Below are positions 20,120 through 44,260 of a stretch of 51,012 nucleotides of DNA, piece after piece (the first letter of the stretch is position 1; every line of letters begins with the position of its first letter). Below the pieces are notes generated by a model that made no database searches, was not told the origin of the DNA, and saw only the letters and a program-made list of their open reading frames with translations. Source of the stretch: Fusobacteriia bacterium UBA1095 (GTDB lineage Bacteria; Fusobacteriota; Fusobacteriia; Bac17; UBA816); NCBI GenBank assembly GCA_002313635.1, contig DCBY01000005.1, forward strand, positions 1-51,012, read 5' to 3'. The translations under genes were made by a program, and so were the position numbers.

Positions 20120-20139
20120 TTAATCTCCTGACTTTGCAT

Positions 20140-20168: not shown

Positions 20169-20188
20169 AAATTTAGTGTCTTAGCCTA

Positions 20189-20217
20189 ATTATAAAATTT
20201 TCCCCAACAAAAGTCAA
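20189..20217 (-). promoter_or_regulatory. Sigma70 promoter of the nusA-infB operon
   Basis: TTGACT-N17-TATAAT; the -35 contains the addA TGA stop. Confidence 0.8.
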
Positions 20218-23246: not shown

Positions 23247-23247
23247 T

Positions 23248-25797
23248 CTATATTCCTCTCACTTTGCAAATATCCACAAACTCACAATACCTACACATAT
23301 TCTTATTTTCAGTCCTAGGAAAATATTTAGAGGCTGCTAATTTATGAATTGTAGCACTTACCTCTTCTTCAAAAATAGCAACATTGGTCTCTTCTTTTAG
23401 GGATTCGTCAAAGAATTTGTAAAACCACTTTACCACGTTATCTTTCTCATTATAGTAAAGAATATGGTAAAAATCTAATTGCTTAGAATCAGTATGACCT
23501 GTCTTGTAGTCTATTATGTAGTTATTTTTAGTTGTCTCTATTCTTAAATCAGCTTTACCTTTTATAGTAAAGGTCTCCTTTCCTTTTTTGAACAATCCTT
23601 TTTTCTCAGATACCTCTATCAAGAAATCTTTGATTTTTTCATTCTTTAATCTTAAATTTAGTGCTTTATAGAACGATATAACACTCTTGATTATAAATGG
23701 GTATAATATCTTTTCGTAGTATCTTTTGTAATTAGTAGATATTTTAAATTTTTCTTCATCTATAATTTTATCAAGCTTCTCTTTCACATCATCATATGAG
23801 ATATTAAAATTATTTTTCATTATCTCACTTTTTCTAGCAAAAGCTATTTCATTTAAAACAGAATGTATTATATTACCTAATAAATTTGGATCAATTCTAT
23901 ACACTATTTTATTTTGGCTTGTGCCTAATTTTGCAATAGATTTTAGATAGTATCTGTATGTGCATTTATTTAGATCATTGTAGTCATAAAAACCTATAGA
24001 GAATTCATTATTTTCATTTATGAGGTCACTCTTATCCAGAGGTAATCCATCCATAGCATCATTGTTATCTTCAATTCTACAGCTTTTCTTGTCTTTAAAT
24101 ATTAGACCAGCAATACTGCTGTAGTCACTGCTATTCAGGGATGACTTTTCTACGGGCATTTTAAATTTCACTCTTACTTCTTCAATTATTGAGCTCATTT
24201 CTGATGCCGTATTCGCATCTTTTTTGAAGTAGATGAAGCATTTTTTTGCAGAAAAAATAGCTCTAATGTACCTATACTTATTTTCAAGATATATTGTTTC
24301 TTTGCTTTTTAAATTAAGTCTTTTTTTCTGTTCGTTGGTTAGGAAAAAATTTATTTTTGATTGAGGTGACAAGGATTTTTCATCACAGTTTAGTAAGAAT
24401 AAATTTTTCCAAGGATTTACTTTTTTTATTGACTCTTTGGTGTATCTATATTGTGAAGTATCTAACTGTACTCTTTTACGCTTTAGGCTGTTTAATAAAA
24501 ATTTAAATAGGCTATTACATAACTTACGTTTAGAGAATATATTCTTCCATCTATTTTTCAAAAGATTTTTGTTTATCGCTTCCATTTCTATCAGTGATTC
24601 ATAGAATGTTTCAAATAAATTTGAGTATTCAGAGTTGTTGAATATGGAAAAATCTTTCTTAGAAAAATATCTAAAAAACTCCTCAAAGCTATCTATTTTG
24701 AATAATTTATATATGTCTTCATAAAGCTTTTCGCATATTGCAAATCCTTTAGGTATATACTTGTATCCACTACGAGCTAGGAAAATTATAGATCTTTTAT
24801 CTTTTGGAGTAATCTCATAGTATTTGAAAAAGTAGATAGAACCTTGAATCTTCATCAGGTCTGAAATTTTTAAAGACAGTTGATTATCTATAATTTCTGT
24901 ATTTTCAACTAAATTATATAGGTCACTTAAAAAGGAAAAAAACATGGTGTTGCTAAAGAAGTCTTTTTTGTTTGACACTGTCCCAGATAGATAGCTATTT
25001 TGATCGTTTCTTGAATCTATAATAGTTGCCTTATCAAGACCTTTCATGTCTTTTAGTAAACTTAGTGATTGTACGCAATTATCAGAACATTCTCTAATTT
25101 TTACATCTATCTTCGTATTAGGAATTGTAACTTTTTTCATTCTTAAATTTTTTAAATCAAAATCTTCAGGATCCATCTGTAGGAATAATTCTATATCAGT
25201 ATCAATGCTACTAAATGAATCTATTATATGTTTTTCTAACCTGGAAAAGTAAAGAGTATTTACAAAGATTACTTTTTTGACTTGCTTGAATTTAGTCAGG
25301 TCAACTCTAGCAGGATTATATACAAAGATTCTATCTTCAAGATTATTTTGAATTACGTACTCTTTATAGTCATTTTTAACATTTTCAAGTTGTTTAAAGA
25401 TCTCTTTCTGCCACTCATATAGGTTGTCTTCTTTGATTTTCCTCTCTTCTATCAACTCTTCGTATAGATTAAAAAATAATTTTCCAAATTCTATGCAATC
25501 AAATATATTTTTTATACCAAACCTTGATTTATTTTCATTTGTCAAAGATTTAAAGAAAGAGACTAATCTAAAATCTCCTTCTATTATGGGTTTTTCTTTG
25601 AAAAATATCTCTGACTTTAATTGATCTTTGGTGGTAACTATAGCTCTGTTTATACCAAACGTTTCAAATAATTTATTTCTACATGAAGTCACATCCTCAA
25701 GACTATCCAGAACAAAAATGCATTCATTTGGGTTCTGAACATGCCCGAAGATCTGGTCAAATATTGGTTGACCGTAGCCAACGAATCGACACAGCAT
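23248..25797 (-). CDS. addB: AddB-like PD-(D/E)xK nuclease subunit with Fe-S staple
   Basis: KCTYRYY, GKADL..IDYKTG, CRYCEFVDIC; directly upstream of addA. Confidence 0.88.
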   Translation of the reverse strand: MLCRFVGYGQPIFDQIFGHVQNPNECIFVLDSLEDVTSCRNKLFETFGINRAIVTTKDQLKSEIFFKEKPIIEGDFRLVSFFKSLTNENKSRFGIKNIFDCIEFGKLFFNLYEELIEERKIKEDNLYEWQKEIFKQLENVKNDYKEYVIQNNLEDRIFVYNPARVDLTKFKQVKKVIFVNTLYFSRLEKHIIDSFSSIDTDIELFLQMDPEDFDLKNLRMKKVTIPNTKIDVKIRECSDNCVQSLSLLKDMKGLDKATIIDSRNDQNSYLSGTVSNKKDFFSNTMFFSFLSDLYNLVENTEIIDNQLSLKISDLMKIQGSIYFFKYYEITPKDKRSIIFLARSGYKYIPKGFAICEKLYEDIYKLFKIDSFEEFFRYFSKKDFSIFNNSEYSNLFETFYESLIEMEAINKNLLKNRWKNIFSKRKLCNSLFKFLLNSLKRKRVQLDTSQYRYTKESIKKVNPWKNLFLLNCDEKSLSPQSKINFFLTNEQKKRLNLKSKETIYLENKYRYIRAIFSAKKCFIYFKKDANTASEMSSIIEEVRVKFKMPVEKSSLNSSDYSSIAGLIFKDKKSCRIEDNNDAMDGLPLDKSDLINENNEFSIGFYDYNDLNKCTYRYYLKSIAKLGTSQNKIVYRIDPNLLGNIIHSVLNEIAFARKSEIMKNNFNISYDDVKEKLDKIIDEEKFKISTNYKRYYEKILYPFIIKSVISFYKALNLRLKNEKIKDFLIEVSEKKGLFKKGKETFTIKGKADLRIETTKNNYIIDYKTGHTDSKQLDFYHILYYNEKDNVVKWFYKFFDESLKEETNVAIFEEEVSATIHKLAASKYFPRTENKNMCRYCEFVDICKVRGI

Positions 25798-25867
25798 ACA
25801 GCCTCCTACAGCTGCACAAAAAAATTTTTATAATTTCTTATGCTATTTAAAAGTTATTCTAAGTGAG

Positions 25868-25896
25868 ATGATAACATTTTTTGAATGTGAAAGCAA
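25868..25896 (-). promoter_or_regulatory. Putative sigma70 promoter of addBA
   Basis: TTGCTT-N17-TATCAT with a TG extension. Confidence 0.55.
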
Positions 25897-25899
25897 TTT

Positions 25900-26916
25900 T
25901 TATTCACACTCTTCTACCCTTAATTTTATGATAGAAGATAAATCGATTTTTTTAAATGATTCTAGCATGCTTTTTCTGTCTTTCATATTAGAGTTGATAA
26001 TAATAGAGTATAGTATTTTAGCAGTTATAAACCCTTCTAAACCAGACTCACCTACCTCAAAATCAGGTTCATACTTTCTAGAACATTTTACATAATCTTT
26101 TACTGTTTTATTGTTTGAATTGATATTGGGGAATATTTTCCCTGAATAGACTTTTACACCATATTTCTTTATCTTTTTATTGACTTCAGAGTTAGATAGA
26201 TAAAAAGGTAGGATAAATGTACTATCTACCCCGTTAAATTTTGCCCTTTTGATAAAGCTAATTGCTCCTTTTTGTTCTCCAAGTATTATTATGTGGCTAG
26301 GTTTAAGTTGCTTTATATCCATCAAGGCTTCATTCATAGATAGAGGATCTTTAATGTATGAAAAGACAGAAGGAACTATTTTTGTTAATTCACTAATGTA
26401 CTCTTTTTGCCATTCTTCTTCCTTTTCAAATACAATAGCCAATTTTTGTACATCGTGTCTGTTTACAAAATCAGCTAAAGCTTCTAAATCTTTTTCTATG
26501 GATGGCCTTAGATAGAAGATATCTTCACTGTTTTCATCTATATCTTTTTGAGATAGACTAACGAAAGGAAAGGCCATTACAACATCTTTTTTCTTTGCTT
26601 CTTCTATGGATTTTAGCACCCCTTCCATATTTGAGTATCCCATTAGTACGGAAGCTTTATCAGAAAAAATTAATCTCCTTGTGTTAGACAGGTCTCTAGT
26701 AGGTCTATTTCCATTATCATAAAAAATTGCTTTAGGAATAATATTAGGATCACTGTCTATTACTTTATTTAAATAACATATAGCTCCCCTGACATATTCT
26801 GCATTTTTACCCTCTTCTTTCTCTTTAAAGATAGATCCACCTATAATTACATCTGCTTTTTTCTCTTCAGAAAAGGATGTTTGGCTTAAAGCAAGAAACA
26901 TTAAAAATATCATCAT
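25900..26916 (-). CDS. Periplasmic-binding-protein type 1 (branched-chain amino acid/LivJ-like), no adjacent permease
   Basis: Short signal peptide; RGAICYLNKV, FYDNGNRP, IFYLRPS, EGFITAKIL resemble the Peripla_BP_6 pattern. Confidence 0.7.
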   Translation of the reverse strand: MMIFLMFLALSQTSFSEEKKADVIIGGSIFKEKEEGKNAEYVRGAICYLNKVIDSDPNIIPKAIFYDNGNRPTRDLSNTRRLIFSDKASVLMGYSNMEGVLKSIEEAKKKDVVMAFPFVSLSQKDIDENSEDIFYLRPSIEKDLEALADFVNRHDVQKLAIVFEKEEEWQKEYISELTKIVPSVFSYIKDPLSMNEALMDIKQLKPSHIIILGEQKGAISFIKRAKFNGVDSTFILPFYLSNSEVNKKIKKYGVKVYSGKIFPNINSNNKTVKDYVKCSRKYEPDFEVGESGLEGFITAKILYSIIINSNMKDRKSMLESFKKIDLSSIIKLRVEECE

Positions 26917-27839
26917 AAATTCCCCAAATAAATTTTTATTCTATTTATAATTTTATCTGAACTTTCACTTATTGAAAACCCTGCCGCTTTTTTATGACCA
27001 CCACCACCAAATATAGAAGCCAACTTATTAACATCTACATTGTTCGATCTTAAACTACCTTTAAATTCACTTCTATGCTCTTTTAAAAGTAGAAATATGT
27101 CATATCCTTCTAACGTTTTCATTAATTCTATTATCCCTTCACAGTCTTCATATTTAGCATCAAGCGTCTCAAGTACATCCTTATTCATTACAAAATAGCA
27201 GAATTTTAATCTTTCAATTAATATGAAGTTTTGTAAAACATATCCCATTAATCTTAAATTTTTGATCTTTCTTCTGCCAAATAGGTTTTTTGATACTAGT
27301 TCATGATCTACGCCATAAAGCTTTAATTTTGCTAACTTGTTAAGCGTTGTACTATTTACTTTACCCCATGATAAATTGCCAGTGTCGCTCATAAATCCGT
27401 AATATAGACACAAAGCTATTTCAGAGTTAATTTTGAAATTATTATTTTCAAATATATCAAATAAGATTTCAGCAGTTGAGCATGCCTCAGTATTTATAAA
27501 GTTACTAATTCCAAAATCATTCTTACTTACATGGTGATCAATATTGATTAAATCTTTGTAAACAATTCCTTCTTTTGCTACCCTATCAATGCTTCCACAG
27601 TCAACTGATATTAGGAGATCAACATCATAGCAGTTATCAGCATCTGATATTGTGATTTCATTGACATCGAAGAAATTAAAATAATCTGTCAAAGGCTCAT
27701 TAATGAAAAAATTAACTTCTGTATTGAAATTTAAATTAATTGTTTTCATCAGCGCCAATCCAGATCCTATTGCATCTGGATCTGGATTAATATGGGTAAC
27801 TATACCTATTTTTTTGTAATTACCTAAAATGTCTAACAA
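26913..27839 (-). CDS. nrnA: DHH/DHHA1 phosphoesterase (NrnA-like)
   Basis: THINPDPDAIGS, VDCG, IDHH, SDTG, GGGHKKAAG; TTG start. Confidence 0.92.
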   Translation of the reverse strand: MLDILGNYKKIGIVTHINPDPDAIGSGLALMKTINLNFNTEVNFFINEPLTDYFNFFDVNEITISDADNCYDVDLLISVDCGSIDRVAKEGIVYKDLINIDHHVSKNDFGISNFINTEACSTAEILFDIFENNNFKINSEIALCLYYGFMSDTGNLSWGKVNSTTLNKLAKLKLYGVDHELVSKNLFGRRKIKNLRLMGYVLQNFILIERLKFCYFVMNKDVLETLDAKYEDCEGIIELMKTLEGYDIFLLLKEHRSEFKGSLRSNNVDVNKLASIFGGGGHKKAAGFSISESSDKIINRIKIYLGNL

Positions 27840-28477
27840 TCTATTTTACCCCTTAGTATTTTGCCTGTTAAATCAACTACAATACCGGTAGATATAGCCG
27901 ATACTATAGAAGCAATAACATTTTCAACTGGGAATACAAGGCTAGAACTTAGGACTATTAGTATTTTATTCAAAGATACTGCAGAGCCTATGCTTAGCTT
28001 ACCATACCAGTGGTTCATTATCTTAGCTAAGATGTCCACTCCTCCACTGGAACCAGACATTAAATTAGCCCCACATATTCCGATTCCGCTTGTTATACCA
28101 GCAAGAATTGCAGCTGTCCATATAGACATTTCTGGAATATCTATAGGCAACAGTAGAAATAGGCTTGAAATGAGAATAGTAAAAAATGGTAATACCAGTG
28201 TACTATATAGCGATTTTAGAATAAATTCCATACCAAATATTTTGTACGAAAGAAGTAATAAAGGGCAATTGATAATAACATATATGATAGGTACTAAGAT
28301 ACCCTCATCACCTGATAAATTCATCAGGTGATAGAGTACCATAGATATGCTCATAAACCCACCAGAAACAACCTTGTTAGGGATTAAAAAGATAGCATGT
28401 GAAATCCCAACTAATAATATGAATAGATTAAATAATAAAAAAGATTTAAAGCTCTTTTTTACTATCTTCGATTTCAT
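27833..28477 (-). CDS. YitT-family membrane protein (copy 3)
   Basis: SGG..IS, NCPLL, GSSGGVDILAK; multi-TM. Confidence 0.85.
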   Translation of the reverse strand: MKSKIVKKSFKSFLLFNLFILLVGISHAIFLIPNKVVSGGFMSISMVLYHLMNLSGDEGILVPIIYVIINCPLLLLSYKIFGMEFILKSLYSTLVLPFFTILISSLFLLLPIDIPEMSIWTAAILAGITSGIGICGANLMSGSSGGVDILAKIMNHWYGKLSIGSAVSLNKILIVLSSSLVFPVENVIASIVSAISTGIVVDLTGKILRGKIDC

Positions 28478-29118
28478 TACTTTTTGCCCACCAACAACTT
28501 AAGAGTAAGATCTAAAGAGTATGCAACAATAATTACTACAGCTATGCCATATAGGGTACCAGATGCTCCCAATATAAATAGAGAAGCAGCTAATATAATT
28601 AAGTTAAATAGTCCTATTGAAAGACCTAAACTTATTCTAGGTACATACTTATTTAGTACTTGACCTAATATGTCAGTTCCACCTGTATTTGCTCCAGAAT
28701 ATATTGTTAAAGCTACTCCCACTCCCATAACTACTCCTCCAAGTAATATAGCTGTGTACAAGCTAGGTACATAATTAGCTACCACTGAGGCGAATAAGAA
28801 ATTTATAACCATTATGTATATTGGATAAGCGAAACTAGCATATACAACTTTTAGTAGATACTCTAAACCGAAGACGTAATATGCAGCTACGAGTAGAGGT
28901 ATGTTGTACATAATAGCTATAGAGCTTATTAAGTTGTTTGCATCACCACACAGGCCTAAAGCATTGTACGTTAGTAAAGCAACACTATATAGTCCTCCAG
29001 GTGGTATGTTAACTTTAGAAAAGAAGAATACAGCAGGAATTGCTGCAATTATGCATCCTAAGTTAAGTATTAAAAAATTCTTCATCATACTGTTATTATT
29101 CATTTTGTTTTTTTCCAT
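28477..29118 (-). CDS. YitT-family membrane protein (copy 2)
   Basis: PGGLYSVA, NIPLL, ANTGGTDILGQ; multi-TM. Confidence 0.85.
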   Translation of the reverse strand: MEKNKMNNNSMMKNFLILNLGCIIAAIPAVFFFSKVNIPPGGLYSVALLTYNALGLCGDANNLISSIAIMYNIPLLVAAYYVFGLEYLLKVVYASFAYPIYIMVINFLFASVVANYVPSLYTAILLGGVVMGVGVALTIYSGANTGGTDILGQVLNKYVPRISLGLSIGLFNLIILAASLFILGASGTLYGIAVVIIVAYSLDLTLKLLVGKK

Positions 29119-29142
29119 AAAAAACCTCCTTAGTTAAACAGT

Positions 29143-29787
29143 TTACTCCATGTCTACTGCTCTTTTATTGAAGCCGTACCATAAAGTTACATCTATAAAC
29201 CAACCCGTTAAGATTATTGATATAACAGAAGCAATAGCTCTGTCTATACCAAACATTATTGCTGAGACAAGAGTTAAAGCTAAATTAGTCAATGTCACAC
29301 CAAGTCCCAAACTTATTTTTGGGTAGTATCTATTTATTATCTTTGCTACAGTGTCTGCACCCCCAGTACTTCCACCTAGACCCATTATTATTCCTATACC
29401 TACACCTGGAATTAAGCTTCCTAATATAGTTGCTACAAATATGTTGCTTTCAACTATGCTGTAGTTTATATATTTCAAAAAAGCCCCCATTAGTAGCATG
29501 TACAGAGGTAGAGTAGCTGTTGCATAGAATGTCTTATTGAAATACTCTTTGCTAAAGTAAAGAAAAGAATATAAAAACAGAGGAGCATTCAGCAAGAAGG
29601 CTATTATAGGCACATATATACTGCCATCATCCTTTAGCCCAAATAGGTGAGTTAACACTATGGCAATACCATAAAGCCCACCTGATGTAATTGTTGAAGG
29701 TATCAGATAAAAAATATCTGCTATTGGCATTAAGGCCAAAGTTAAGTTAATTATTAAAAAATTTAAAAGCTTCTTTTTTCTATCCAT
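29143..29787 (-). CDS. YitT-family membrane protein (copy 1)
   Basis: SGGLYGIA, NAPLF, GSTGGADTVAK; multi-TM. Confidence 0.85.
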   Translation of the reverse strand: MDRKKKLLNFLIINLTLALMPIADIFYLIPSTITSGGLYGIAIVLTHLFGLKDDGSIYVPIIAFLLNAPLFLYSFLYFSKEYFNKTFYATATLPLYMLLMGAFLKYINYSIVESNIFVATILGSLIPGVGIGIIMGLGGSTGGADTVAKIINRYYPKISLGLGVTLTNLALTLVSAIMFGIDRAIASVISIILTGWFIDVTLWYGFNKRAVDME

Positions 29788-29788
29788 A

Positions 29789-30148
29789 TTAAATCTCCTT
29801 AGTTAGATTTGCTAAAATTCCATTTACGAACCTGAAAGAATCATCGGTTCCATAAATCTTGGCCAATTCTATAGCTTCATTTATGGCTATCCTGTGATTT
29901 AGTTCATCATACTTTATCTCATAAACAGCCAAAATTAACAAGCTTTTTTCAATGTCACCTATCTCTCTAAAGTCCCATCTTGAAGTGTTACGCTTTATAA
30001 TCTCTATTATACTGTCCAAATTTTGCTTGATATTATTTATACCCTTTTCCACATATTCGGTCTTAGGAGTACCAGGATTACAATTTGGATTAGATAGTAA
30101 TTGGAAAATTAGTTTAAATAGTTCTTCTCTCTCTTTTTTTCTAGACAT
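29789..30148 (-). CDS. nusB: Transcription antitermination factor NusB
   Basis: SRKKERE, IAINEAIELAKIYG, FVNGIL. Confidence 0.96.
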   Translation of the reverse strand: MSRKKEREELFKLIFQLLSNPNCNPGTPKTEYVEKGINNIKQNLDSIIEIIKRNTSRWDFREIGDIEKSLLILAVYEIKYDELNHRIAINEAIELAKIYGTDDSFRFVNGILANLTKEI

Positions 30149-30152
30149 TTAC

Positions 30153-30326
30153 TTAATCTCTGGATATCCATTCTGATATTTTTTCTCTATTTACTATGAA
30201 CAACATCATAGTACCCAAAACAACAACAGTACTTACAACACCTTGAGTTACTATTAGAATTCCCACAATGAACCCAGCTAGTCCAAATACAACAACTTTC
30301 TTGTTTATTTCATCTATGAAGTTCAT
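30153..30326 (-). CDS. Small membrane protein, 57 aa (DUF2273-like); not in the ORF track
   Basis: MNFIDEINKKVVVFGLAGFIVGILIVTQGVVSTVVVLGTMMLFIVNREKISEWISRD*; fills the gap between asp23 and nusB, where DUF2273 proteins typically occur. Confidence 0.75.
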   Translation of the reverse strand: MNFIDEINKKVVVFGLAGFIVGILIVTQGVVSTVVVLGTMMLFIVNREKISEWISRD

Positions 30327-30328
30327 TC

Positions 30329-30718
30329 CTATTTCTCCTTTTTACCTTTCTCTCCATCAGAAGGAGCACCTTCTTCAGAAGGCTCTATCCTCACTTTGTC
30401 AACATAGACGTTGACAGAGTGAATTTTAATGTCAAGCATATCTTTTATGTCTTTCTTAACATTGTGCTGAATCTTTCTGGCAACTTCACCCACTTTATAG
30501 CCATGTTTCACTGCTATGTTTATATCAATTACCCTATGCTTGTCATCATCAATCTTGACATAGATACCTTTTTGAAATTGCTTTTTACCTAGCATTTCAC
30601 TTATTCCTTCAACAACACCACCTGAAAGCTCGTAAACTCCGTCCACCCTCATGGTTGCAGCACCGGCTATACTTGATACAACATCATTGGTTATTTTTAT
30701 TTCACCAGTATTTGACAT
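30329..30718 (-). CDS. Asp23/Gls24 family protein
   Basis: GEIKITNDVVSSIAG, VDGV, GIYV, VARKIQHNVK, VNVYV. Confidence 0.92.
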   Translation of the reverse strand: MSNTGEIKITNDVVSSIAGAATMRVDGVYELSGGVVEGISEMLGKKQFQKGIYVKIDDDKHRVIDINIAVKHGYKVGEVARKIQHNVKKDIKDMLDIKIHSVNVYVDKVRIEPSEEGAPSDGEKGKKEK

Positions 30719-30751
30719 AAAAATATGATTTCCTTTCTTGTATTAATCAAG

Positions 30752-30781
30752 ATTCTACCACAGCACATATTTGTTTGTAAA
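30752..30781 (-). promoter_or_regulatory. Putative promoter of asp23-DUF2273-nusB-yitT operon
   Basis: TTTACA-N18-TAGAAT with a TGTG extension. Confidence 0.6.
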
Positions 30782-32953
30782 TCAGTATATAGGCACAAAT
30801 GCAATTATATTCTGAGGTAGCAAAGTTATATTTTGGTATGCTATTTTAAAGGATAGCTTATCTATTTGTGAATTATTATTTATAAGTACAGGTATTTCAC
30901 TACCCTTTGCATTAATTAATTTTTCCTTTAGCTCAACTTTCTCCTCATTGCTCAATTTAGAAACATCAATTAAAATTCCAAAATTGTAACTTTTACTAAA
31001 CAGCTTTTGACTCTCTTTAATTAGGGAGAAATATTTTTTAACTAATATTTTCTCTTCTGCTGTTAATTTTAGTCTGGTTTCAATGTCTTTTATACCCAAA
31101 AATGGTCCCTTTTCTCGCTCTCTAATTATCTGTTCTGCTAGTCCTTCTACCATGACAGATTTAAGCCCTTTAACAAGAAGGTTATTTTTTACAGAGTAAC
31201 CTTTGTCTGACCAATTTATGTCAGGCTCTAGCATTTTACTTTCAAATGAAGTTACTAAGTTGAACTCTTTTTTGAAATTGGCTTTAAAGTATGCCATATA
31301 ATAAGTGAGATAGGCATATGCTATCGCATGTGACTTTGGGAATGAATAATCTTTGAATTTCATTATTAAATTTAAGTCAGACTTGTCTATCGGTATCTTT
31401 TCTAAGTCATCATTCCTTCCCTTTCTTAATGCTCTGATAATCATTTCTGAATCTTCAATATTAATTCCCTTTTTAGTTAAGAGTTCAATTAGTTGTTCTT
31501 GATATACTATAGAGTTTTTTGAACATATATCTTCAATGTTTTGAAGAGCTGCTGGTCTATTGATAGCTAAAACTCTTGCAAGATCTTCTATGCTATTAGG
31601 TTTTATATGTTTTATTATATCTCTTGCTGTAATTGATTCTAACTGAAATATGTTCTGTGTATCTAAAGAGTTTATAATTTTGTAAGCTTTACTGTTATTT
31701 AATTCCAGTTCAGCAAGATTAGTATTTGTTATCTCTAAAAGCATCTTTAGTAAAGTTAATGTTTTCAAGGGAAGTATATCAATTTTTATTCCTTTTAGCT
31801 CCTCTATCTCTTCTAAATCTAAATCAATAATTCCATCATTTACTGTAGCAATCTTAGTTATATTATTTGAAATTATTATTCCCACAGGGTGTTTTATTTT
31901 ATTGCATATTAAATTAGATATTTTTGGGGAGAGTTCTTCAATTGATTTAATATCTTTTACAACTCTGCTCAGGGCTATTTGAGCTGACTTTAAAGTGAAT
32001 TTGGAATAAGCTGATATCTCCCAAGCGTTATATTTCTTTTTTATATTTTCTATCAATTTGCCTCTTTTATTATGTTCTACATCTATATCAATGTCTGGTA
32101 AGCTAGCTCTCTTTCTATTCAAAAATCTTTCGAACATCAAATTATACTTCAGCGGATTAAATGCTGTTATTCCCAACGAATATGCTACATAACTTGATGT
32201 TGCTGATCCCCTACCTGGACCTACCATAATGTCTAAGCTTTTAGCTAAATTTACGATATCAGAGACAGCCAAGAAGTATGAGCATAATTTCTTGTCATTT
32301 ATTACCTTTAACTCTCTATTTATATCTTTTTCATTGTCTGCTGATAGTAATTTTTGTTCTAAAATACTCTCATCATTTTGTATGCTGTAATTTTCTATCT
32401 CAGGAAAGGAGATGTTTACCATAGATACTATTTTTTCCATATTCTCTATAGCTTTCTTAGATACGTTCTCTTGAGTTAGATGATAATCATTTTTGTCCTT
32501 ACATATTTTCCCTTTGATGGCTGAAGTGTAGGCTAAATATGTCTTTTTATCCTCTTTGTTCAAGTATTTAATATAAGGAGTAAAGACCTCTTTTTCATGT
32601 TTTCCTTCTACAGATGAGTGATAAAATACTTGTTCTCCCTTAATTATTTCATCATTCATTATTATCTTAATTATCTCTTCATCGTTTACTACATTATCAA
32701 GATTGTTATTTATTATCTCAGAATATTTATTGAAGTTAGTAGGTATCAAAAGCATTAGTGTGTTGCCTAACTGTTTCTCAAAAACAAATATAGGCTTGAT
32801 ATTTTTCTTTTTAGCTAATTTGTAAAAATTTACAACTCCACTACTGCTATTACCGAAATTGACACCAACTGCCCTTTTACTAATTGATGTTATTTCATCT
32901 AAGGTTAGTATACTGTCTAAACTAAAGTCAGATTTGCAATTTAGGAAAATCAT
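30782..32953 (-). CDS. dnaE: DNA polymerase III alpha subunit, strongly shortened (723 aa)
   Basis: VGPGRGSA, FERFLN, LPDIDID, KIDIL, FQLES, YQEQ, FPKSHAIAY, PDIN HhH region; degenerate PHP. Confidence 0.92.
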   Translation of the reverse strand: MIFLNCKSDFSLDSILTLDEITSISKRAVGVNFGNSSSGVVNFYKLAKKKNIKPIFVFEKQLGNTLMLLIPTNFNKYSEIINNNLDNVVNDEEIIKIIMNDEIIKGEQVFYHSSVEGKHEKEVFTPYIKYLNKEDKKTYLAYTSAIKGKICKDKNDYHLTQENVSKKAIENMEKIVSMVNISFPEIENYSIQNDESILEQKLLSADNEKDINRELKVINDKKLCSYFLAVSDIVNLAKSLDIMVGPGRGSATSSYVAYSLGITAFNPLKYNLMFERFLNRKRASLPDIDIDVEHNKRGKLIENIKKKYNAWEISAYSKFTLKSAQIALSRVVKDIKSIEELSPKISNLICNKIKHPVGIIISNNITKIATVNDGIIDLDLEEIEELKGIKIDILPLKTLTLLKMLLEITNTNLAELELNNSKAYKIINSLDTQNIFQLESITARDIIKHIKPNSIEDLARVLAINRPAALQNIEDICSKNSIVYQEQLIELLTKKGINIEDSEMIIRALRKGRNDDLEKIPIDKSDLNLIMKFKDYSFPKSHAIAYAYLTYYMAYFKANFKKEFNLVTSFESKMLEPDINWSDKGYSVKNNLLVKGLKSVMVEGLAEQIIREREKGPFLGIKDIETRLKLTAEEKILVKKYFSLIKESQKLFSKSYNFGILIDVSKLSNEEKVELKEKLINAKGSEIPVLINNNSQIDKLSFKIAYQNITLLPQNIIAFVPIY

Positions 32954-32959
32954 ACTACA

Positions 32960-32968
32960 ATTGTATCA
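32960..32968 (-). promoter_or_regulatory. Extended -10 promoter 6 nt before the dnaE ATG (leaderless-type)
   Basis: TG-A-TACAAT-tgtagt-ATG with no correctly spaced SD. Confidence 0.6.
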
Positions 32969-32977
32969 TCTATTCCT

Positions 32978-33712
32978 TTAGGAAAATATTAAATAGGATA
33001 AGAAGAGATTAACTACTATTATAGCGACTATGGAATAAGCAACAGAATCTGTTGTCGCTCTGCTAACTTCTGTACTACTACCTCTTAGAAAAATTCCTTT
33101 GTAACAAGATATAAATGAGATTACAAAACCAAAGGCAATAGTTTTTGATACTCCTCCAATAACATCCATTTGTCTAAACATTTCAGAAGCTTTTTCTAAA
33201 TATGCTCCATATGATATATCATAGAAGAATACCGCCATTATGTAGCTACCTAATCCACCTGCAAAAATAGATATCATAGTTAAAAATGGTAGCATTATTA
33301 TGCTAGATAAAACTTTTGGAGCAACTAAATATCTAATTGGATTTACTGCCATTAATTTTAAAGAGTCAATCTGATTAGTTATATTCATACTTCCTAACTC
33401 TGCAGCCATTGCTGATCCCATTCTTCCAGCGATCATTATTGATATAACAACTGGTGATACTTCTCTTGCTAGTGAAACCATTACCATACCACCAGTTAGT
33501 GTTTCAGCACCAAATCTTCCCAATTCTGGTACAAACTGTAAAGTTAGTACTAGCCCTAAAAAGAAAGATACAACTAAAACCATAGATAGTGAAAGGGCTC
33601 CAAAAAAATAGATCTGATTTACAAACATTGACCTTTTGTATCCCTTTTTGTCTGTAATTATTTCGTAACATCCTATAAAAATATCTTTTGTATACTCTAC
33701 TATTCTACTCAA
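32978..33712 (-). CDS. mlaE: MlaE-family ABC permease
   Basis: REVSPV, AGRMGSAMAAELGSMNITNQIDSL, NPIRYLVAPK, VSRATTDSV. Confidence 0.93.
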   Translation of the reverse strand: MSRIVEYTKDIFIGCYEIITDKKGYKRSMFVNQIYFFGALSLSMVLVVSFFLGLVLTLQFVPELGRFGAETLTGGMVMVSLAREVSPVVISIMIAGRMGSAMAAELGSMNITNQIDSLKLMAVNPIRYLVAPKVLSSIIMLPFLTMISIFAGGLGSYIMAVFFYDISYGAYLEKASEMFRQMDVIGGVSKTIAFGFVISFISCYKGIFLRGSSTEVSRATTDSVAYSIVAIIVVNLFLSYLIFS

Positions 33713-33714
33713 GT

Positions 33715-35619
33715 CTAACCCCTTAAAATTTTGTCTATATTACCCACTTTGTTTATAAGGTTTACTAGATAACAAAGCAAAGATAATCTATTATTCATTG
33801 TTTTTTCATCTTCAGACATTACAATTATATTATCAAAAAAATTAGATAAATACACATCCAACCTGCTTATGCCTTTCATTAAATCTTTATATTTATTTAT
33901 CTGGTTAAGTTGTTCAATTTGTTCATAAAGCTCTTTTTCTTCTTTCTTCTTTAACAGTGCTTTTTCAACTGAAGGAGATTGAGCAAGCTTTTTCGCTAAA
34001 TTGAAAGCTCTTAAATATAGCTCTTTTAATGAAGCAATATCTGCATGTCTTATAGCTTCTGCTCTAGAAATTAGATCAGGAATATTATCCCAATACTCAA
34101 TTACTGCATTTACTATATTTTTATCAAATCTCTCTAGCATGTAGCTCTCTACTCTACTTACCATGAAATGTTCTAGATTGGATATGCTTATACTGCCAGA
34201 AGATTTTGAGACATCTGTCAGTAGCTGTTTTACGCTAAGATTTATGTCAAATTTATCTAAAATTTCTATTATCCCTATTGCCTCTCTTCTTAAGAAAAAA
34301 GGGTCTTTAGCTCCTTTAGGTAACTTGCCTAATATATCAAATTGTGCAAGGTTATCTGCCTTATCTAATATGCTTAAGATAGCTCCTTCTGTTGAAGAAG
34401 GTAGTTTGTCTCCTCTAAATCTAGGTAAGTAGTGTTCAAAAATTAGTTTAGAAACATTTTCATCAACTTTTCTATCAACAGCATATATGTATCCAATATA
34501 GCCTCGTAAAGTAGCATACTCTTTTTCCTTAACTACTGATGTAGCCAAATCAAATTTGCTGATCTGAGCAGCATTAACTATTGATTCATCAAGTGAAAAT
34601 AAATTTTTATAAATCTTTGCTAAACCTACTAATCTGCTTTGCTTATCCATCATATTACCTGCACCTTGGAATAGAGATATATTAGGTAATTCTTCAATAA
34701 AGTCTTCTATCCTCTTTTTACTATCTTCTTCTACAAAATTCTTTGCATCATGGAGTCTCGATCTAACAACTTGCTCATTCCCCATTCTTACCAAATTATC
34801 ATCATTATTACTTTCAGCAATTACAAAAAAATTATTGCCTCCAGACATAATACCAGATTGGTGGACTGCTATAGTTTTATTAATTATTTCATAGGGTAAT
34901 TCTAAAAAAGTTTTATCAAAACTGCACATAACTGCTTTAGGGTTTTCTGTATTGTTAATTGCTTCGTAAAATACACTGTTCCTTTCAACTGTGGGGTCTA
35001 CACTTTTATCCCTGGCTTCTTCTGTTATTTTTATTTGTGAAATTGTAGAATAATAATCAGCATAACTATTTACTTTAATATCTCTATTATTGACTTTTAT
35101 TTTATCTGATGATTCTATATTTCCTACTTTAACTTTGATAATTTTGTTGTCATTGAATGCAACTATATATCTAATAGGTCTAAGAAAGTGAATTCCTTCC
35201 CATGACATTTTAACTGGGAAATCTATAGAGGTTAAAGACTTCTCTAAAGCATCTGATAGCTTGTTCTCTAAAGAAATTTTTTCTACTTTATTTACACCTA
35301 TATATTTTTTTTCTCCTTTAATGTCAGTAAAAATGTCTTCTTGTTTGCAACTATTTTTCAATAAAAATTTTTCGCCAACGTGATTTAATTTTCCCTCTAT
35401 AAAGCATAGATCATATGGAGGGCCTACTACTTTGGTAGTGATTTCTTCTTTGAAATCAACCTCTTTAAGATCTACTATAAATCTTCTATAAGTACCTTTA
35501 ACACTTATCTTTTTAGAAAATGAAAAATTACATAGCATATTTTTTTCTAAACTATCAAGTGTGGATTTAAGGCTTTTCGATGGGAAATTTTCTATGCCCA
35601 GTTCGATAACAATATTCAA
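33715..35619 (-). CDS. glyS: Glycine-tRNA ligase beta subunit
   Basis: IELGIENFP, MSWEG..FLRPIRY, GNEQVVRSRLHDA, HYLPRFRGDKLP, KDPFFLRR, NNRLSLL. Confidence 0.95.
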   Translation of the reverse strand: MNIVIELGIENFPSKSLKSTLDSLEKNMLCNFSFSKKISVKGTYRRFIVDLKEVDFKEEITTKVVGPPYDLCFIEGKLNHVGEKFLLKNSCKQEDIFTDIKGEKKYIGVNKVEKISLENKLSDALEKSLTSIDFPVKMSWEGIHFLRPIRYIVAFNDNKIIKVKVGNIESSDKIKVNNRDIKVNSYADYYSTISQIKITEEARDKSVDPTVERNSVFYEAINNTENPKAVMCSFDKTFLELPYEIINKTIAVHQSGIMSGGNNFFVIAESNNDDNLVRMGNEQVVRSRLHDAKNFVEEDSKKRIEDFIEELPNISLFQGAGNMMDKQSRLVGLAKIYKNLFSLDESIVNAAQISKFDLATSVVKEKEYATLRGYIGYIYAVDRKVDENVSKLIFEHYLPRFRGDKLPSSTEGAILSILDKADNLAQFDILGKLPKGAKDPFFLRREAIGIIEILDKFDINLSVKQLLTDVSKSSGSISISNLEHFMVSRVESYMLERFDKNIVNAVIEYWDNIPDLISRAEAIRHADIASLKELYLRAFNLAKKLAQSPSVEKALLKKKEEKELYEQIEQLNQINKYKDLMKGISRLDVYLSNFFDNIIVMSEDEKTMNNRLSLLCYLVNLINKVGNIDKILRG

Positions 35620-36143
35620 TTTGCTTCTCCCATATAACTAGGCATTAACTTTATTATTACTTCTCTATCTAAGTTATTCTCAGGTACAATTTCTATCTCC
35701 TCTTCTATTTGTAATTCTCTTCTTACTTTGTACAGTATGTCTAATACCATCTGCCCTTCTGCACTTCTAAGATTTAGATTTGAAAGTGAAACAGAACTTT
35801 TTTTAACATTCTTTTCTGCAACCTCATCTTTTTTATTTAAGTTTAGGCTGGTAGTTATAGTTGACCCTTTTAAATAAATTTTATCTTCTACTACTGAGAC
35901 ATTTAAAAACACTACCTTTGATTTTGTTATTTTTTTGCTACTCTCTTTCTCAGGTACTTTAATTAATTCTCTAACTAGCTCAAGAGAGCCTTTGCCCTCT
36001 TTTGAAGGAGAAAAGCCGCCTTCTTTTACAGCATAATAGTACATACAGTCTAAGGCTTTTTGTGGATTATTAATGCCTTTCAACACAACTACCTTAAATT
36101 CTGTTGAGCATGAAAACAAAAATGCAAATAACATAAATAACAT
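35616..36143 (-). CDS. Hypothetical lipoprotein between glyQ and glyS
   Basis: MLFMLFAFLFSC lipobox-like start; 1 nt after the glyQ stop and TTGA overlap with glyS. Confidence 0.75.
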   Translation of the reverse strand: MLFMLFAFLFSCSTEFKVVVLKGINNPQKALDCMYYYAVKEGGFSPSKEGKGSLELVRELIKVPEKESSKKITKSKVVFLNVSVVEDKIYLKGSTITTSLNLNKKDEVAEKNVKKSSVSLSNLNLRSAEGQMVLDILYKVRRELQIEEEIEIVPENNLDREVIIKLMPSYMGEAN

Positions 36144-36144
36144 A

Positions 36145-37017
36145 TTAAACTCTCTTTTTTCTGATTATATCATAATCACTCTTAGTCTTAACGTACGATT
36201 CACAACAAAGTTTAGCTAATCTACTCACTGTCTGTATGAAATTTTGTCTCTTTTTAGGAGATATAACTTTTTGAGCATCTAGCACATTAAAGGCATGAGA
36301 TGCTTTCAATACCATGTCATATGCTGGAAACACAAGATCATCTTCTAGACATTTTTTGGCCTCTTCTACGTATATGTTGAAAAGGTTCAAATAATTATCT
36401 GGATTAGCTACCTCAAAAGAGTATTTAGAGTATTCGAATTCTCTTCTTCCAAATACTTCCTTATATTTTTTATTGCCATCCCAATCTAGCTCAAGTATGT
36501 TGTCCTTATTTTGAACAGCAAGAGCTAACCTCTCCACACCGATTGCTATCTCTATCGGAGTATGAATTAGGTTTATGTTACCAACTTGATTGAAATAAGT
36601 GAATTGAGTTACTTCTCTACCATTTATTCTAACTTCTGAGCCTAGTCCCCATGCACCTAAAGTCGGCTGTTCCCAATTATCTTCGATAAATCTAACATCA
36701 TTTTTCTCTAAATCTATTCCTATATGCTCCAAGCTCTTTAAATAGATTTCTTCTATATTTGAGGGTGATGGTTTCAAAAATACTTGAAATTGATGGTGTT
36801 GATACAGCCTATTAGGGTTTATTCCATATCTGCCATCTTGTGGTCTCCTACACTGCTCAATATAAGCTATTTTTTCTAAACTGTCACCTAATGATCTTAA
36901 AAAAGTATTGGGACTGGAAGTAGCAGCCCCTTTTTCAACATCATAAGAATACTCTATTGTGACACCCTGATCAAGCCAAAAATTTTCAAGAGCTTTTAGC
37001 ATACTCTTTATGTTCAT
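36145..37017 (-). CDS. glyQ: Glycine-tRNA ligase alpha subunit
   Basis: RRPQDGRYG, NPNRLYQHHQFQV, EDNWEQPTLGAWGLG, EVTQFTYF, LKASHAFNVLDA. Confidence 0.99.
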   Translation of the reverse strand: MNIKSMLKALENFWLDQGVTIEYSYDVEKGAATSSPNTFLRSLGDSLEKIAYIEQCRRPQDGRYGINPNRLYQHHQFQVFLKPSPSNIEEIYLKSLEHIGIDLEKNDVRFIEDNWEQPTLGAWGLGSEVRINGREVTQFTYFNQVGNINLIHTPIEIAIGVERLALAVQNKDNILELDWDGNKKYKEVFGRREFEYSKYSFEVANPDNYLNLFNIYVEEAKKCLEDDLVFPAYDMVLKASHAFNVLDAQKVISPKKRQNFIQTVSRLAKLCCESYVKTKSDYDIIRKKRV

Positions 37018-37493
37018 TTATCCTCGCTGATATAACTGTCAATTAATAACAAAATTATTGCTATGTTTATAAAGGCATCTGCCCCGTTGAATATAAATGT
37101 CCATATCCCATTAAAGTCAATGAAATCTATTACAAAATTTCTGAAAAGCCTATCGTAACTATTACCTAGTGCTCCTCCAAAAATTAATCCATAAGCGACA
37201 AGTTTTAACATGCTAAATTCGTTTATTCTTTTGTAAATATAGTAAAGTATGTAAAATGTCACACCTACACCTAATGCACTGACTAACCAAAATACAAACT
37301 GATTGTCTAGAAATAGTCCAAATACTATACCAGTATTTCTGACGTAGGTAATTCTTAAGAAATTCCCTATAACTTCTATAGATTGATGTGGAATCATATA
37401 CAGGTCAACCAATATTTTTGAAATTTGGTCAGCTGCAAATGAAAATAGTGAAATGAATGATAATATTAAATATCTTCTAGTACTTTTCTGCAT
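37014..37493 (-). CDS. lspA: Lipoprotein signal peptidase II
   Basis: DQISK, NTGIVFG, GGALGNSYDR, VIDF, FNGAD. Confidence 0.96.
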   Translation of the reverse strand: MQKSTRRYLILSFISLFSFAADQISKILVDLYMIPHQSIEVIGNFLRITYVRNTGIVFGLFLDNQFVFWLVSALGVGVTFYILYYIYKRINEFSMLKLVAYGLIFGGALGNSYDRLFRNFVIDFIDFNGIWTFIFNGADAFINIAIILLLIDSYISEDK

Positions 37494-40096
37494 TTTTCAC
37501 AAACCTCTCCTTCTTTTATATAATTAAAGTATAACCAACACCTATCACATTTTATACCATTAAATTTGTTGACTACAACTTTATTTTCATCTGCCATAGT
37601 AATATTTACTTCGGCAACCTTGAATATCTCTTTAAGTTCATCTTCATTAAAGAAATTCAAATTTGTAAAAAGATCTACGGATACTTGAGAAGATTTTTTT
37701 ACAATATCGTTTTCTATTAACTTCTCTATTTCTGTATTAACTTTGCTTCTCAATAAAAGAACTTTTTCCCAAATATCTAAATTCAATTTTGGGTTTAAAG
37801 ACTCTATTTCAGATAGAAATACAGAGTTATCACTCAAGTAGGACCAAACTTCCTCTGAAGTGAAAGATAAAACCGGAGATATAAATTTACTAATTTGTTG
37901 GCAAATTTTCTTTAAAACTATTTGGCAAGATATCCTCTCTTTACTCTTTGGTAAAGAGGTGTAGAGCCTATCTTTAACTATGTCAAAATAAAAAGAGCTC
38001 ATTTCAGTTAAGAAACTTACTATCTCTAACATTCCGTTATGAAACTGGTACCTATCAAACAGATTTGTCGCTTTGTTAATAGTATCATCTAGCTTAGTGA
38101 TTGCCAGTTCATCTATTTTCATTAATTGCGCATCACTGTCTTCGCTTAAATCATGAATATTTCCTAAAATGAATCTGAAAGCATTTCTTATTTTTCTATA
38201 ACTCTCTATGTTTTGTTTTAGAATGTCTTCAGAAATTCTAACATCACCCATAAAATCTACTGATGCTGTCCACAATCTAAGTATATCTGCTCCATATTTA
38301 GAGACTATATCTTGAGGTAATACAACATTACCTAGCGACTTACTCATTTTTATTCCATTGCCATCCATCACAAATCCGTGAGTTACTAAACTTTTGTAAG
38401 GTGCTTTTTCTCTTGAACCTACACTAGTTAGTAAAGATGTTTGAAACCAGCCTCTATGTTGGTCACTGCCCTCAAGATATAGATCCGCTATGTTGTCTTT
38501 TAAAACTGTAGAGTATGTTGTCCCAGAGTCAAACCAGACATCAAATATATCCTCACCTTTCCTAAAATCACTATCTTCACAGCATTTATATCTTGATTTG
38601 AGGAAATATTCTGCATCTTTGCTAACAAATATATTGGACCCATTTATTTTAACTTCCTCAGCTATCTCTCTTATTAACTTACTATCTAACAGAGGTTTAT
38701 TACATTTGTTACAAAAAAATACAGGTATAGGAACACCCCATACTCTCTGCCTAGAGATACACCAGTCAGGTCGATTTTCCATCATGGATCTGAGTCTATG
38801 CTCGCCTTCTGAAGGAAGAAAAGATACATTCTCAATCTCTTTTAGGCATTTCTCTCTTAATCCAGAATTTACATCTATAAACCACTGTTTTGTTGCCCGA
38901 AATATTATTGGTTTTTTTCCTCTTTCTGAGTAAGGATAGGAGTGCTTAATCTTTTCATGCAAAAGTAAATTTGAGCCTAGTGCTTCAATTATTTTCATAT
39001 TTGCATCTTCGTAAAATAGCCCTTCAAAATTGTCTGCTTCTTTTGTCATAACTCCCTTTTCATCTACGGGGCAGAGTATTTCTAGTCCATACTTTGTGCC
39101 TAGAATGTAGTCATCCATACCATGACCTGGTGCAGTGTGAACGCAACCAGTACCTGATTCGGGAGTTACGTGATGACCCAACACTATCTTACCTTCCCTT
39201 TTTATAAATGGATGCTCATAGCTGTAGTTTTCAATTTCATGTCCCTTGAACTCTCTTAAAATTTTGCCTAGGGATAGCTTTTCTTTCAGTGTTTCATATA
39301 ATTCCTTAGCTACTATAATATTCTTTCCTTTTTCTTCAGTAACTACGTAGTCAAGATCAGGATTAAGCGCAACAGCAAGGTTAGCTGGTAGCGTCCAGGG
39401 TGTTGTTGTCCAAACAGCTAGGTATAAATTTGAAGCATCTAGCTTGGTTTCTAGCTCTTTTGAAGATTTCATTAAGAAATATATGGAGTTAGATTCTTTC
39501 TCCTTGTAAACAATCTCTGCTTCAGCTAATGCAGTTCTGGTTGTCACACACCAATAAACAGGTTTGAGAGAATTGTATACGTATCCTTTTTCAACCAGTG
39601 TTGCAAATACTCTTAACTGTTCAGCTTCAAATTTGGGATCCATTGTAATATAAGGATTTTCCCAGTCAGCTAATATACCTAATCGTTTGAAATCCTTTTT
39701 ATGCCTCTTTATAAATTTAAGAGCATGATTTCTAAATTTATTTCTAAGAGATATTTTGTCTCCATCTAAGTCTCCTTTGCTCATTACTGCTAATTCTATG
39801 GGAAGCCCATGAGTATCCCATCCTGGTATGAATTCAGCTTTAAACCCTTTTATTCTTTTGTATTTCAAGACAATGTCTTTTAAAATTTTATTAAAAGATG
39901 TCCCAACATGTATATCTCCATTAGCGTAAGGCGGACCATCATGGAAAACAAATGTTTTGTTTCCTTTTGATAGAAGCTGTTCGTATATTTTTTCATCTTC
40001 CCATTTTTTCAAAATTGATGGTTCTTTCTCAGGAAGGTTAGCCTTCATACTGAATGCTGTTTTTGGTAAATTAAGTGTATCAGAATAATTTTTCAT
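37466..40096 (-). CDS. ileS: Isoleucine-tRNA ligase (type 1)
   Basis: HDGPPYANG-HVG, WTTTPWTLP, WCISRQR, KMSKS, C-terminal CDRCW..CEKC zinc finger. Confidence 0.99.
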   Translation of the reverse strand: MKNYSDTLNLPKTAFSMKANLPEKEPSILKKWEDEKIYEQLLSKGNKTFVFHDGPPYANGDIHVGTSFNKILKDIVLKYKRIKGFKAEFIPGWDTHGLPIELAVMSKGDLDGDKISLRNKFRNHALKFIKRHKKDFKRLGILADWENPYITMDPKFEAEQLRVFATLVEKGYVYNSLKPVYWCVTTRTALAEAEIVYKEKESNSIYFLMKSSKELETKLDASNLYLAVWTTTPWTLPANLAVALNPDLDYVVTEEKGKNIIVAKELYETLKEKLSLGKILREFKGHEIENYSYEHPFIKREGKIVLGHHVTPESGTGCVHTAPGHGMDDYILGTKYGLEILCPVDEKGVMTKEADNFEGLFYEDANMKIIEALGSNLLLHEKIKHSYPYSERGKKPIIFRATKQWFIDVNSGLREKCLKEIENVSFLPSEGEHRLRSMMENRPDWCISRQRVWGVPIPVFFCNKCNKPLLDSKLIREIAEEVKINGSNIFVSKDAEYFLKSRYKCCEDSDFRKGEDIFDVWFDSGTTYSTVLKDNIADLYLEGSDQHRGWFQTSLLTSVGSREKAPYKSLVTHGFVMDGNGIKMSKSLGNVVLPQDIVSKYGADILRLWTASVDFMGDVRISEDILKQNIESYRKIRNAFRFILGNIHDLSEDSDAQLMKIDELAITKLDDTINKATNLFDRYQFHNGMLEIVSFLTEMSSFYFDIVKDRLYTSLPKSKERISCQIVLKKICQQISKFISPVLSFTSEEVWSYLSDNSVFLSEIESLNPKLNLDIWEKVLLLRSKVNTEIEKLIENDIVKKSSQVSVDLFTNLNFFNEDELKEIFKVAEVNITMADENKVVVNKFNGIKCDRCWLYFNYIKEGEVCEKCRKVLEDI

Positions 40097-40109
40097 TTTT
40101 TAACTCCAA

Positions 40110-42765: not shown

Positions 42766-42778
42766 TTATCCTCCTGAT

Positions 42779-42804
42779 TTTTTCTAATTATAACATTAGA
42801 AAAA
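42779..42804 (-). promoter_or_regulatory. Extended -10 promoter of the Deg protease embedded in a 10-6-10 inverted repeat
   Basis: TTTTTCTAAT-N6-ATTAGAAAAA overlapping TG-T-TATAAT (42787..42795); AGGAGG SD downstream. Confidence 0.6.
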
Positions 42805-42818
42805 TTATATTAAAATCT

Positions 42819-44228: not shown

Positions 44229-44237
44229 ATTTTAAGT

Positions 44238-44246: not shown

Positions 44247-44260
44247 CTAAAAGTCTAATT

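Follow-up and report, generated by a model that had tools for sequence, protein, structure and literature searches.

A 723-residue DnaE beside PolC in an uncultured relative of the Fusobacteria: a probable trimmed auxiliary polymerase

The dnaE gene and the anatomy of its product

The subject of this report is a dnaE gene lying on a stretch of 51,012 nucleotides (contig DCBY01000005.1, positions 1 to 51,012, assembly GCA_002313635.1 of Fusobacteriia bacterium UBA1095), referred to below as the window. The assembly, from a lineage related to the Fusobacteria, consists of 768 kb in 33 contigs and is 92% complete. On the minus strand at 30782..32953, an open reading frame running from ATG to TGA (723 codons plus TGA) encodes a DnaE of 723 residues, the shortest complete one found, a ranking based on the top 150 matches of a search of 1.8 billion representatives and on the literature. 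This protein is probably a functional, catalytically active but trimmed DnaE that acts as an auxiliary polymerase of a PolC replisome. The parts of the gene are as follows.

30782..32953, minus strand: dnaE coding sequence (open reading frame list; Pfam and NCBIfam DnaE matches; top Foldseek match 2hpi)
32408..32953, minus strand: degenerate PHP remnant, residues 1-182 (alignment; no Pfam PHP match; AlphaFold2; Foldseek match 4gx9)
32009..32407, minus strand: palm part 1, residues 183-315, with GPGRGS, FERFLN (274-279), D287 and D289 (alignments, motif check)
31892..32008, minus strand: thumb remnant, residues 316-354, 39 of 78 residues (phmmer to Thermus aquaticus (Taq); multiple sequence alignment)
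31763..31891, minus strand: palm part 2, residues 355-397, with the third catalytic Asp, D392, in KIDIL (alignments)
31238..31762, minus strand: fingers, residues 398-572 (Pfam finger domain, alignments)
31034..31237, minus strand: helix-hairpin-helix (HhH), residues 573-640 (Pfam HHH_6, E 1e-6; alignment to Taq 850-926)
30998..31012, minus strand: SQKLF, resembling a clamp-binding motif, residues 648-652 (sequence check, orthologue alignment)
30785..30991, minus strand: C-terminal domain, residues 655-723 (hhalign; AlphaFold2)

Pfam DNA_pol3_alpha (PF07733) was matched at residues 196-350 (E 2e-45, 155.9 bits against a cut-off of 23.9), the finger domain PF17657 at 65 bits (cut-off 22) and HHH_6 (PF14579) at 29.2 bits (cut-off 25.6), while the same scan of the protein returned no PHP, no OB (tRNA_anti-codon/OB) and no RNase_T match. 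PolC carries an N-terminal domain and an OB fold before its PHP domain and an exonuclease within it; this hallmark, a DEDD exonuclease inserted in PHP, is absent from the 723-residue protein, which has no RNase_T match. The NCBIfam DnaE equivalogs match at E 1e-75, yet remain under their curated cut-offs (PRK05673, 254 of 1002 bits; PRK07135, 231 of 1084; TIGR00594, 245 of 434), as is expected for a protein without a third of the model, and because of such scores genes of this kind may be under-annotated. Orthologues share the first residue, which confirms the start codon.

The predicted structure agrees with this assignment. AlphaFold2, supplied with a 39-sequence alignment, gave a mean predicted local distance difference test score (pLDDT) of 84.7 and a predicted template-modelling score of 0.78, and was confident over the PHP stub, the palm, the thumb remnant and the fingers. 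In Foldseek, the top match was the polymerase III (Pol III) alpha subunit of Taq (2hpi, E 7e-43, query template-modelling score (TMq) 0.73); the alpha subunits of Taq, M. tuberculosis and E. coli were the best matches (E 1e-43 to 1e-33, TMq about 0.7), followed by PolC, and the fold was matched over the whole chain by 2hpi, 3e0d, 5lew and 2hnh.

The palm is Pol-beta-like and has the GS motif as well as three catalytic Asp, and the fingers and the (HhH)2 region are supported by the Pfam scores and the whole-chain fold. In alignments to both Taq and E. coli, D287, D289 and D392 correspond to Taq D463, D465 and D618 and to E. coli D401, D403 and D555, and phmmer against Protein Data Bank sequences likewise paired PDIDID (residues 286-291, 32081..32098) and KIDIL (390-394, 31772..31786) with the catalytic Asp of Taq. 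GPGRGS lies at residues 245-250 (GRGS at 247-250) and FPKSHA at 538-543, and YQEQ is also kept; a preliminary description of the gene, made from the sequence alone, had named the three Asp, GRGS and FPKSHA as preserved, and this was borne out. Every column that is invariant over an alignment of 39 diverse DnaEs is retained, including G245-S250, F274-N279, D287, D289, D291, K390, D392, FQ.ES (436-440), R466, P467, Q485, E486, F538 and H542.

Around this core, much has been removed. In an alignment that also contains four full-length DnaEs from genomes of the same class, E. coli alpha and a Bacillales DnaE, the protein shows about 20 in-frame deletion blocks relative to full-length DnaE, which amount to about 384 alignment columns and take roughly 90 residues from PHP, 37 from the thumb, 61 from the fingers and the OB fold entirely. 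Expressed as residues kept out of the E. coli length, 182 of 270 remain in PHP, 176 of 212 in the palm, 39 of 78 in the thumb, 195 of 270 in the fingers up to the HhH and 0 of 115 in the OB fold. The short PHP that had lost its metal-binding His, as first described, is thereby accounted for: His-x-His has become N-C-K, and 7 of the 9 canonical metal-ligand positions are substituted or deleted. This region, with a pLDDT mostly above 90 and a weak Foldseek match to the E. coli PHP-epsilon chimera 4gx9 (E 1.5e-4, TMt 0.42), is predicted to be a folded stub without a metal site. The in-frame deletions reported for thumb and fingers also hold. The thumb deletion removes the helix-loop-helix Taq 510-554 (residue 333 aligns with Taq 509 and residue 335 with Taq 555), and the fingers have lost four segments of 6, 22, 15 and 18 residues, with FQLES, NRPA, YQEQ and FPKSHA retained.

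Downstream of the HhH, SQKLF was found exactly where the preliminary description had placed it (QKLF at 30998..31009). It stands where full-length DnaEs have QxxLF (QADMF in E. coli, QMNLF in Fusobacteriia), the orthologues have QQSLF, QKNLL, QINLF and MNRLF at this site (three of the four being QxxL[FL]), and by its sequence it is like a beta-clamp motif, a putative one.

As for the OB fold, the earlier statement that none is evident proved right, as zero residues align to E. coli 964-1078 and no Pfam OB match was obtained, but a retained C-terminal domain had been overlooked, so that the OB fold is excised and the C-terminus is not truncated. A tail of about 67 residues, only 4-5 residues beyond the clamp motif, aligns in hhalign to E. 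coli alpha 1081-1158, the tau-binding domain. When the five short tails were compared with 120 full-length tails, a probability of 87.6% was obtained (E 3.5e-6, score 35), and 30 column shuffles scored at most 16; an earlier three-sequence comparison had given a probability of 33-43%, suggestive at most. AlphaFold2 modelled the tail in the order beta-alpha-beta-beta-alpha-beta at a pLDDT of 50-70, an order compatible with a tau-binding domain. Judged from these profiles, the last residues, about 67 in number, make up a putative conserved C-terminal domain of the tau-binding type and no leftover, and because the tail is homologous to that domain, the OB fold would have been excised cleanly between it and the clamp motif.

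Relatives, selection and placement among DnaE groups

Four orthologues of similarly short length (736, 766, 782 and 789 residues), recovered by word-based and exhaustive profile searches, show 38-49% identity and a common architecture: each has lost the PHP His, carries matching thumb and finger deletions, and has a C-terminal domain but no OB fold. The gene for the 766-residue protein lies in the neighbourhood mscS-htrA-serS-dnaE-...-nusB-yitT-yitT-DHH, syntenic with the query locus. After these clade mates, the next shortest complete DnaEs encountered are unrelated ones of 818, 824 and 831 residues, of which the first (P0169) is a Mollicutes-like short DnaE, and the suggestion that the gene encodes one of the smallest plausible C-family polymerases is therefore well founded. 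Open-frame lengths in Mollicutes are confounded by the reading of TGA as Trp. Such lengths are routine only in a narrow uncultured clade: the DnaE open frames of 39 class-level relatives span 1067-1278 residues, and the one GTDB genome of the same order (G001) has a DnaE of about 877-880 residues, adjoining serS. Scans for related loci in the contigs of named genomes returned no relative of the query or of the protein P0176.

Selection was assessed between lineages, because variation within the population is near zero: the Tara and JGI contigs retrieved have the same DNA for this gene, and the NCBI metagenome-assembled genome departs from it at a single base (L343F). Nei-Gojobori counts over the three lineages with DNA gave a proportion of non-synonymous differences of 0.35-0.41 and of synonymous differences of 0.65-0.73, and as the latter is saturated, the ratio of non-synonymous to synonymous rates (dN/dS) of 0.16-0.36 is an upper bound, well away from the value near 1 that would mark a decaying gene. 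Mean identity among the five short proteins is 48-53% in the palm, with part 1 the best-conserved of all at 53%, 42% in the fingers and 27% in the C-terminal domain, the lowest; a peak in palm and fingers is what an active polymerase would be expected to show. Purifying selection acts on the catalytic core, which is intact. Between the genomes of the 766-residue lineage and of the query, DnaE is 37.5% identical, SerRS 56%, MscS and HtrA 48% and the DHH protein 38%, so that DnaE is fast-evolving, yet inside the local range.

It follows that the probability of a decaying gene or pseudogene, whose frame would no longer be functional, is very small, even though about 384 alignment columns have gone in some 20 blocks, the stem branch of the clade is long (1.62 substitutions per site) and the best NCBIfam equivalog reaches 254 bits where 1002 are required. 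The frame has stayed open in five lineages that have diverged to 38-49% identity in genomes of about 30% GC, every catalytic and invariant residue remains, dN/dS stays well under 1 with conservation highest in the palm, the sequence is invariant across many ocean samples, and PolC is always found with a DnaE (PMC3919608). An artefact of assembly or gene calling, with a truncated, chimeric or split frame, is scarcely credible, since, for all that this is a metagenome assembly in 33 contigs, independent Tara/ENA, JGI and NCBI assemblies agree on a 2172-nt gene flanked by mlaE and asp23, differing at 0-1 positions, the gene is in the middle of a 146-kb contig, and no stand-alone piece with the OB fold and C-terminal domain, or with PHP, exists elsewhere in the assembly. 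The split gene was rejected by tblastn with the relatives' OB/C-terminal-domain and PHP segments, which found nothing else in the assembly.

With regard to its placement, DnaE3 enzymes have no conserved PHP metal site (Timinskas et al. 2014, NAR 42:1393, PMC3919608), those of Thermotogae have a far smaller PHP and a thumb without the helix-loop-helix Taq 513-552, which is also missing in PolC, many DnaE3s are without the OB fold and/or the C-terminal domain, excision of the OB fold with the C-terminal domain retained has been reported among them, and a higher isoelectric point (pI) is linked to DnaE3 and DnaE2 (all PMC3919608). The query has two DnaE3 features, co-occurrence with PolC and a disrupted PHP metal site; a third feature that defines the group is a place in the tree among the DnaE3s of Bacilli, Tenericutes and Thermotogae. 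It resembles the Thermotogae enzymes in the PolC alongside, the small PHP without a metal site, the thumb deletion, the missing OB fold and a basic pI (8.7-9.1 in the short DnaEs, 6.1-7.2 in their relatives), but these have no recognisable C-terminal domain, whereas the query keeps one within 723 residues. The DnaE of Thermotoga maritima has about 840 residues, and an uncultured Thermotogae genome was found to have a single DnaE of 1181. Fusobacterial DnaE, in contrast, has been placed in DnaE1, the genomes belonging to the PolC plus DnaE1 class (PMC3919608).

In the IQ-TREE phylogeny, the short clade forms a very long branch beside the 877-residue protein of the same order and Thermotogae-like sequences, a position that carries a warning of long-branch attraction. 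Because class-level relatives have full-length enzymes of the DnaE1 type, the resemblance to DnaE3 looks like convergence from a DnaE1-type ancestor, on a tree that is long-branched. That the clade of 723-789 residues comprises the smallest natural catalytically intact C-family replicative polymerase, and reached this state by a convergent 'DnaE3-isation' of DnaE1, is a tentative proposal, to which we give somewhat less than an even chance.

Several longer proteins show part of the same trimming. One of 899 residues (P0129) retains both the PHP His-x-His and the C-terminal domain, with the OB fold excised, and two of 952 and 958 residues (P0127 and P0128) combine a miniature OB fold with the C-terminal domain; as intermediates, these three suggest stepwise, lineage-specific trimming. 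The 899-residue protein is like the query in passing from the HhH and clamp motif directly to the C-terminal domain without an OB fold, and differs in keeping the His-x-His, a PHP of normal size and most of the fingers; the query is 176 residues shorter. The Mollicutes DnaEs (PRK07135 and PRK05898, models of about 970 residues) are similar as products of reduction in small PolC-bearing genomes, and they give the best full-length NCBIfam alignments, starting at query residue 2-3, at 231 bits against a cut-off of 1084. They have lost the C-terminal domain (PMC3919608), however, whereas in the query clade it is the OB fold that is lost and the C-terminal domain that stays. Each of the lost parts is thus already missing from some described DnaE, and it is the combination and the resulting length that appear new.

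Replisome partners and the proposed role

The PolC supposed in the preliminary description is indeed present. The same contig as dnaE (C12 of the assembly) bears, at 94222-98293 on the minus strand, a PolC of 1355 residues with PHP and an inserted RNase_T exonuclease, polymerase core, fingers, HhH and a C-terminal QSTLF. Within the assembly, with its 92% completeness, there is no second dnaE and no stand-alone dnaQ, as the only DEDD exonuclease match belongs to PolC; as far as sequence can tell, the short DnaE has neither intrinsic nor partner proofreading. DnaN (three domains), DnaA, DnaG, DnaB and SSB are present, together with a DnaX of 551 residues with the tau C-terminal domain PF20964. 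The sole delta-prime-like (holB) candidate has 200 residues (C12:132929-133537, minus strand) and covers the second half of PF13177 only; the clamp loader may also be strongly reduced. In the relatives, the PolC frame was 1454-1459 residues long in the 11 of 39 where the search also matched PolC, and PolC was not found in the same-order genome G001, which is 79% complete. Compared with the relatives, DnaE has shrunk by about 36% and PolC by about 7%, and this disparity points to PolC as the main replicase in this lineage.

Based on this combination, the short DnaE is most likely a non-proofreading, low-processivity, primer-extending polymerase beside PolC. In the proposed mechanism, DnaG would lay RNA primers, to which the short DnaE would add a short stretch of DNA in a distributive manner and without proofreading, loosely held at the fork by its weak clamp motif and its C-terminal domain of the tau-binding type. 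The primer would then be handed to PolC, with its exonuclease, full architecture and QSTLF clamp motif. Genome reduction may have trimmed what is superfluous for such a short distributive job, namely the epsilon docking surface and the PHP nuclease site, the duplex-gripping element of the thumb and the OB fold that binds single-stranded DNA.

The best-described parallel is the DnaE of B. subtilis, a DnaE3, which shares with the query the pairing of PolC with one DnaE, a disrupted PHP metal site, no epsilon and a clamp motif that is weak or non-essential (PMC12309361). It elongates RNA primers and then passes them on to PolC (PMC3919608; PMC5627055), and its clamp motif binds about 20-fold weaker than that of PolC in an interaction that is dispensable (PMC12309361); since this contact is weak and dispensable, the replacement of Gln by Ser in the query motif is compatible with a helper role. 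The two differ in architecture: the B. subtilis enzyme has about 1115 residues, and its PHP, thumb, OB fold and C-terminal domain are all complete.

Several points weigh against such a helper role. The division of labour between PolC and DnaE1 in PolC plus DnaE1 systems, Fusobacteria included, is listed as 'Unknown' (PMC3919608), and since Fusobacteria belong to this class, the analogy with B. subtilis crosses DnaE groups. In the query itself, the clamp motif begins with Ser instead of Gln, and the C-terminal domain is modelled at low confidence (pLDDT 50-70). A search with PF06144 did not find holA, which may be diverged or lie in the missing 8% of the assembly. The faster evolution of DnaE than of SerRS (37.5% against 56% identity) likely reflects some relaxed constraint, and the RNA evidence given below consists of assembled contigs, in which DNA may have been carried over.

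Two other roles have to be considered, both of them unlikely. In the first, the short DnaE would be the main replicase, responsible for bulk synthesis of one or both strands, with PolC mainly as a proofreader or partner. The DnaE1 type of the fusobacterial ancestor, in a class for which the split of labour is listed as 'Unknown', would allow for this, as would the retention of the clamp motif and the tau-binding-type C-terminal domain. However, the OB fold and the thumb helix-loop-helix are gone, no route to proofreading is left, as the PHP metal site and dnaQ are absent and the epsilon-binding surface is trimmed, it is PolC that has the full architecture and the exonuclease, and the features of the short DnaE, including its pI of 8.7-9.1, converge on DnaE3, the class of primer extenders.

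In the second, assigned about the same low probability, the protein would be an error-tolerant repair or translesion polymerase with a mainly non-replicative function. Here, tblastn with E. coli RecF found nothing and with UvrA only weak matches of the ABC-ATPase type in the 92% complete assembly, which suggests that the RecF pathway and nucleotide excision repair have been lost; with uvrA and recF seemingly absent and no proofreading, gap filling might fall to DnaE, and the B. subtilis DnaE makes errors readily and plays a part in mutagenesis (PMC12309361). Against this, no other dnaE exists in the genome, DnaE has proved essential in every case tested together with PolC (PMC3919608), and a genome of 0.77 Mb from which repair genes have been shed is not likely to retain an enzyme solely for translesion synthesis.

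The clade offers a natural deletion experiment, in which five diverged lineages agree on the parts of Pol III alpha that can be removed under selection. PHP can do without its metal site and about a third of its length, the thumb without the helix-loop-helix and the fingers without four segments, and the OB fold can go entirely. Retained are the palm, the finger motifs, the HhH, a clamp-type motif and the C-terminal domain. If the clade is indeed the smallest such polymerase and arose by convergence from a DnaE1, a minimal DnaE would have a palm, HhH, clamp motif and C-terminal domain, together with a stub of PHP, half of the thumb and fingers in trimmed form, and a first hint, of a comparative kind, would be at hand that PolC is the main replicase and DnaE a helper with dispensable domains in PolC plus DnaE1 systems. 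The protein is also a small construct on which the structure and biochemistry of C-family polymerases can be studied.

Occurrence, transcripts and surroundings of the gene

The exact protein was found on 92 contigs by cluster look-up, its index entry extends across 127 blocks of the collection, and the contigs come from Tara, JGI, ENA, NCBI and Logan. Metatranscriptome contigs from four runs cover parts of dnaE at a word depth of 2-12, which is weakly consistent with low-level expression; the downstream asp23-nusB unit reaches a depth of about 64, roughly ten-fold over dnaE.

The gene is located between mlaE (32978..33712) and asp23-nusB-yitT, and a promoter for the latter was found by a promoter scan.

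30752..30781, minus strand: promoter of asp23-nusB-yitT, TTTACA, 18 nt, TG-n-TAGAAT (promoter scan)

This promoter, a strong one with an extended -10 element, lies directly past the dnaE stop codon and delimits the dnaE unit on its 3' side. The metatranscriptome contigs, from four runs, stop a little downstream of it, at 30734-30744.

In the same-order genome G001, large ankyrin-repeat genes flank dnaE and serS on contig C22 (1..3032 and 7783..8019). Throughout the window (1..51012), nearly all long open reading frames are on the minus strand and the GC skew is negative, from -0.03 to -0.32; strand-biased genes and purine asymmetry are typical of PolC-bearing genomes. At 32954..32977 on the minus strand, no clear Shine-Dalgarno sequence precedes the dnaE ATG, and a TG-a-TACAAT element ends 6 nt upstream of it, which could mean a leaderless start. 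An RNA contig at 32638..33058 continues from mlaE into dnaE, indicating that read-through transcripts occur too.

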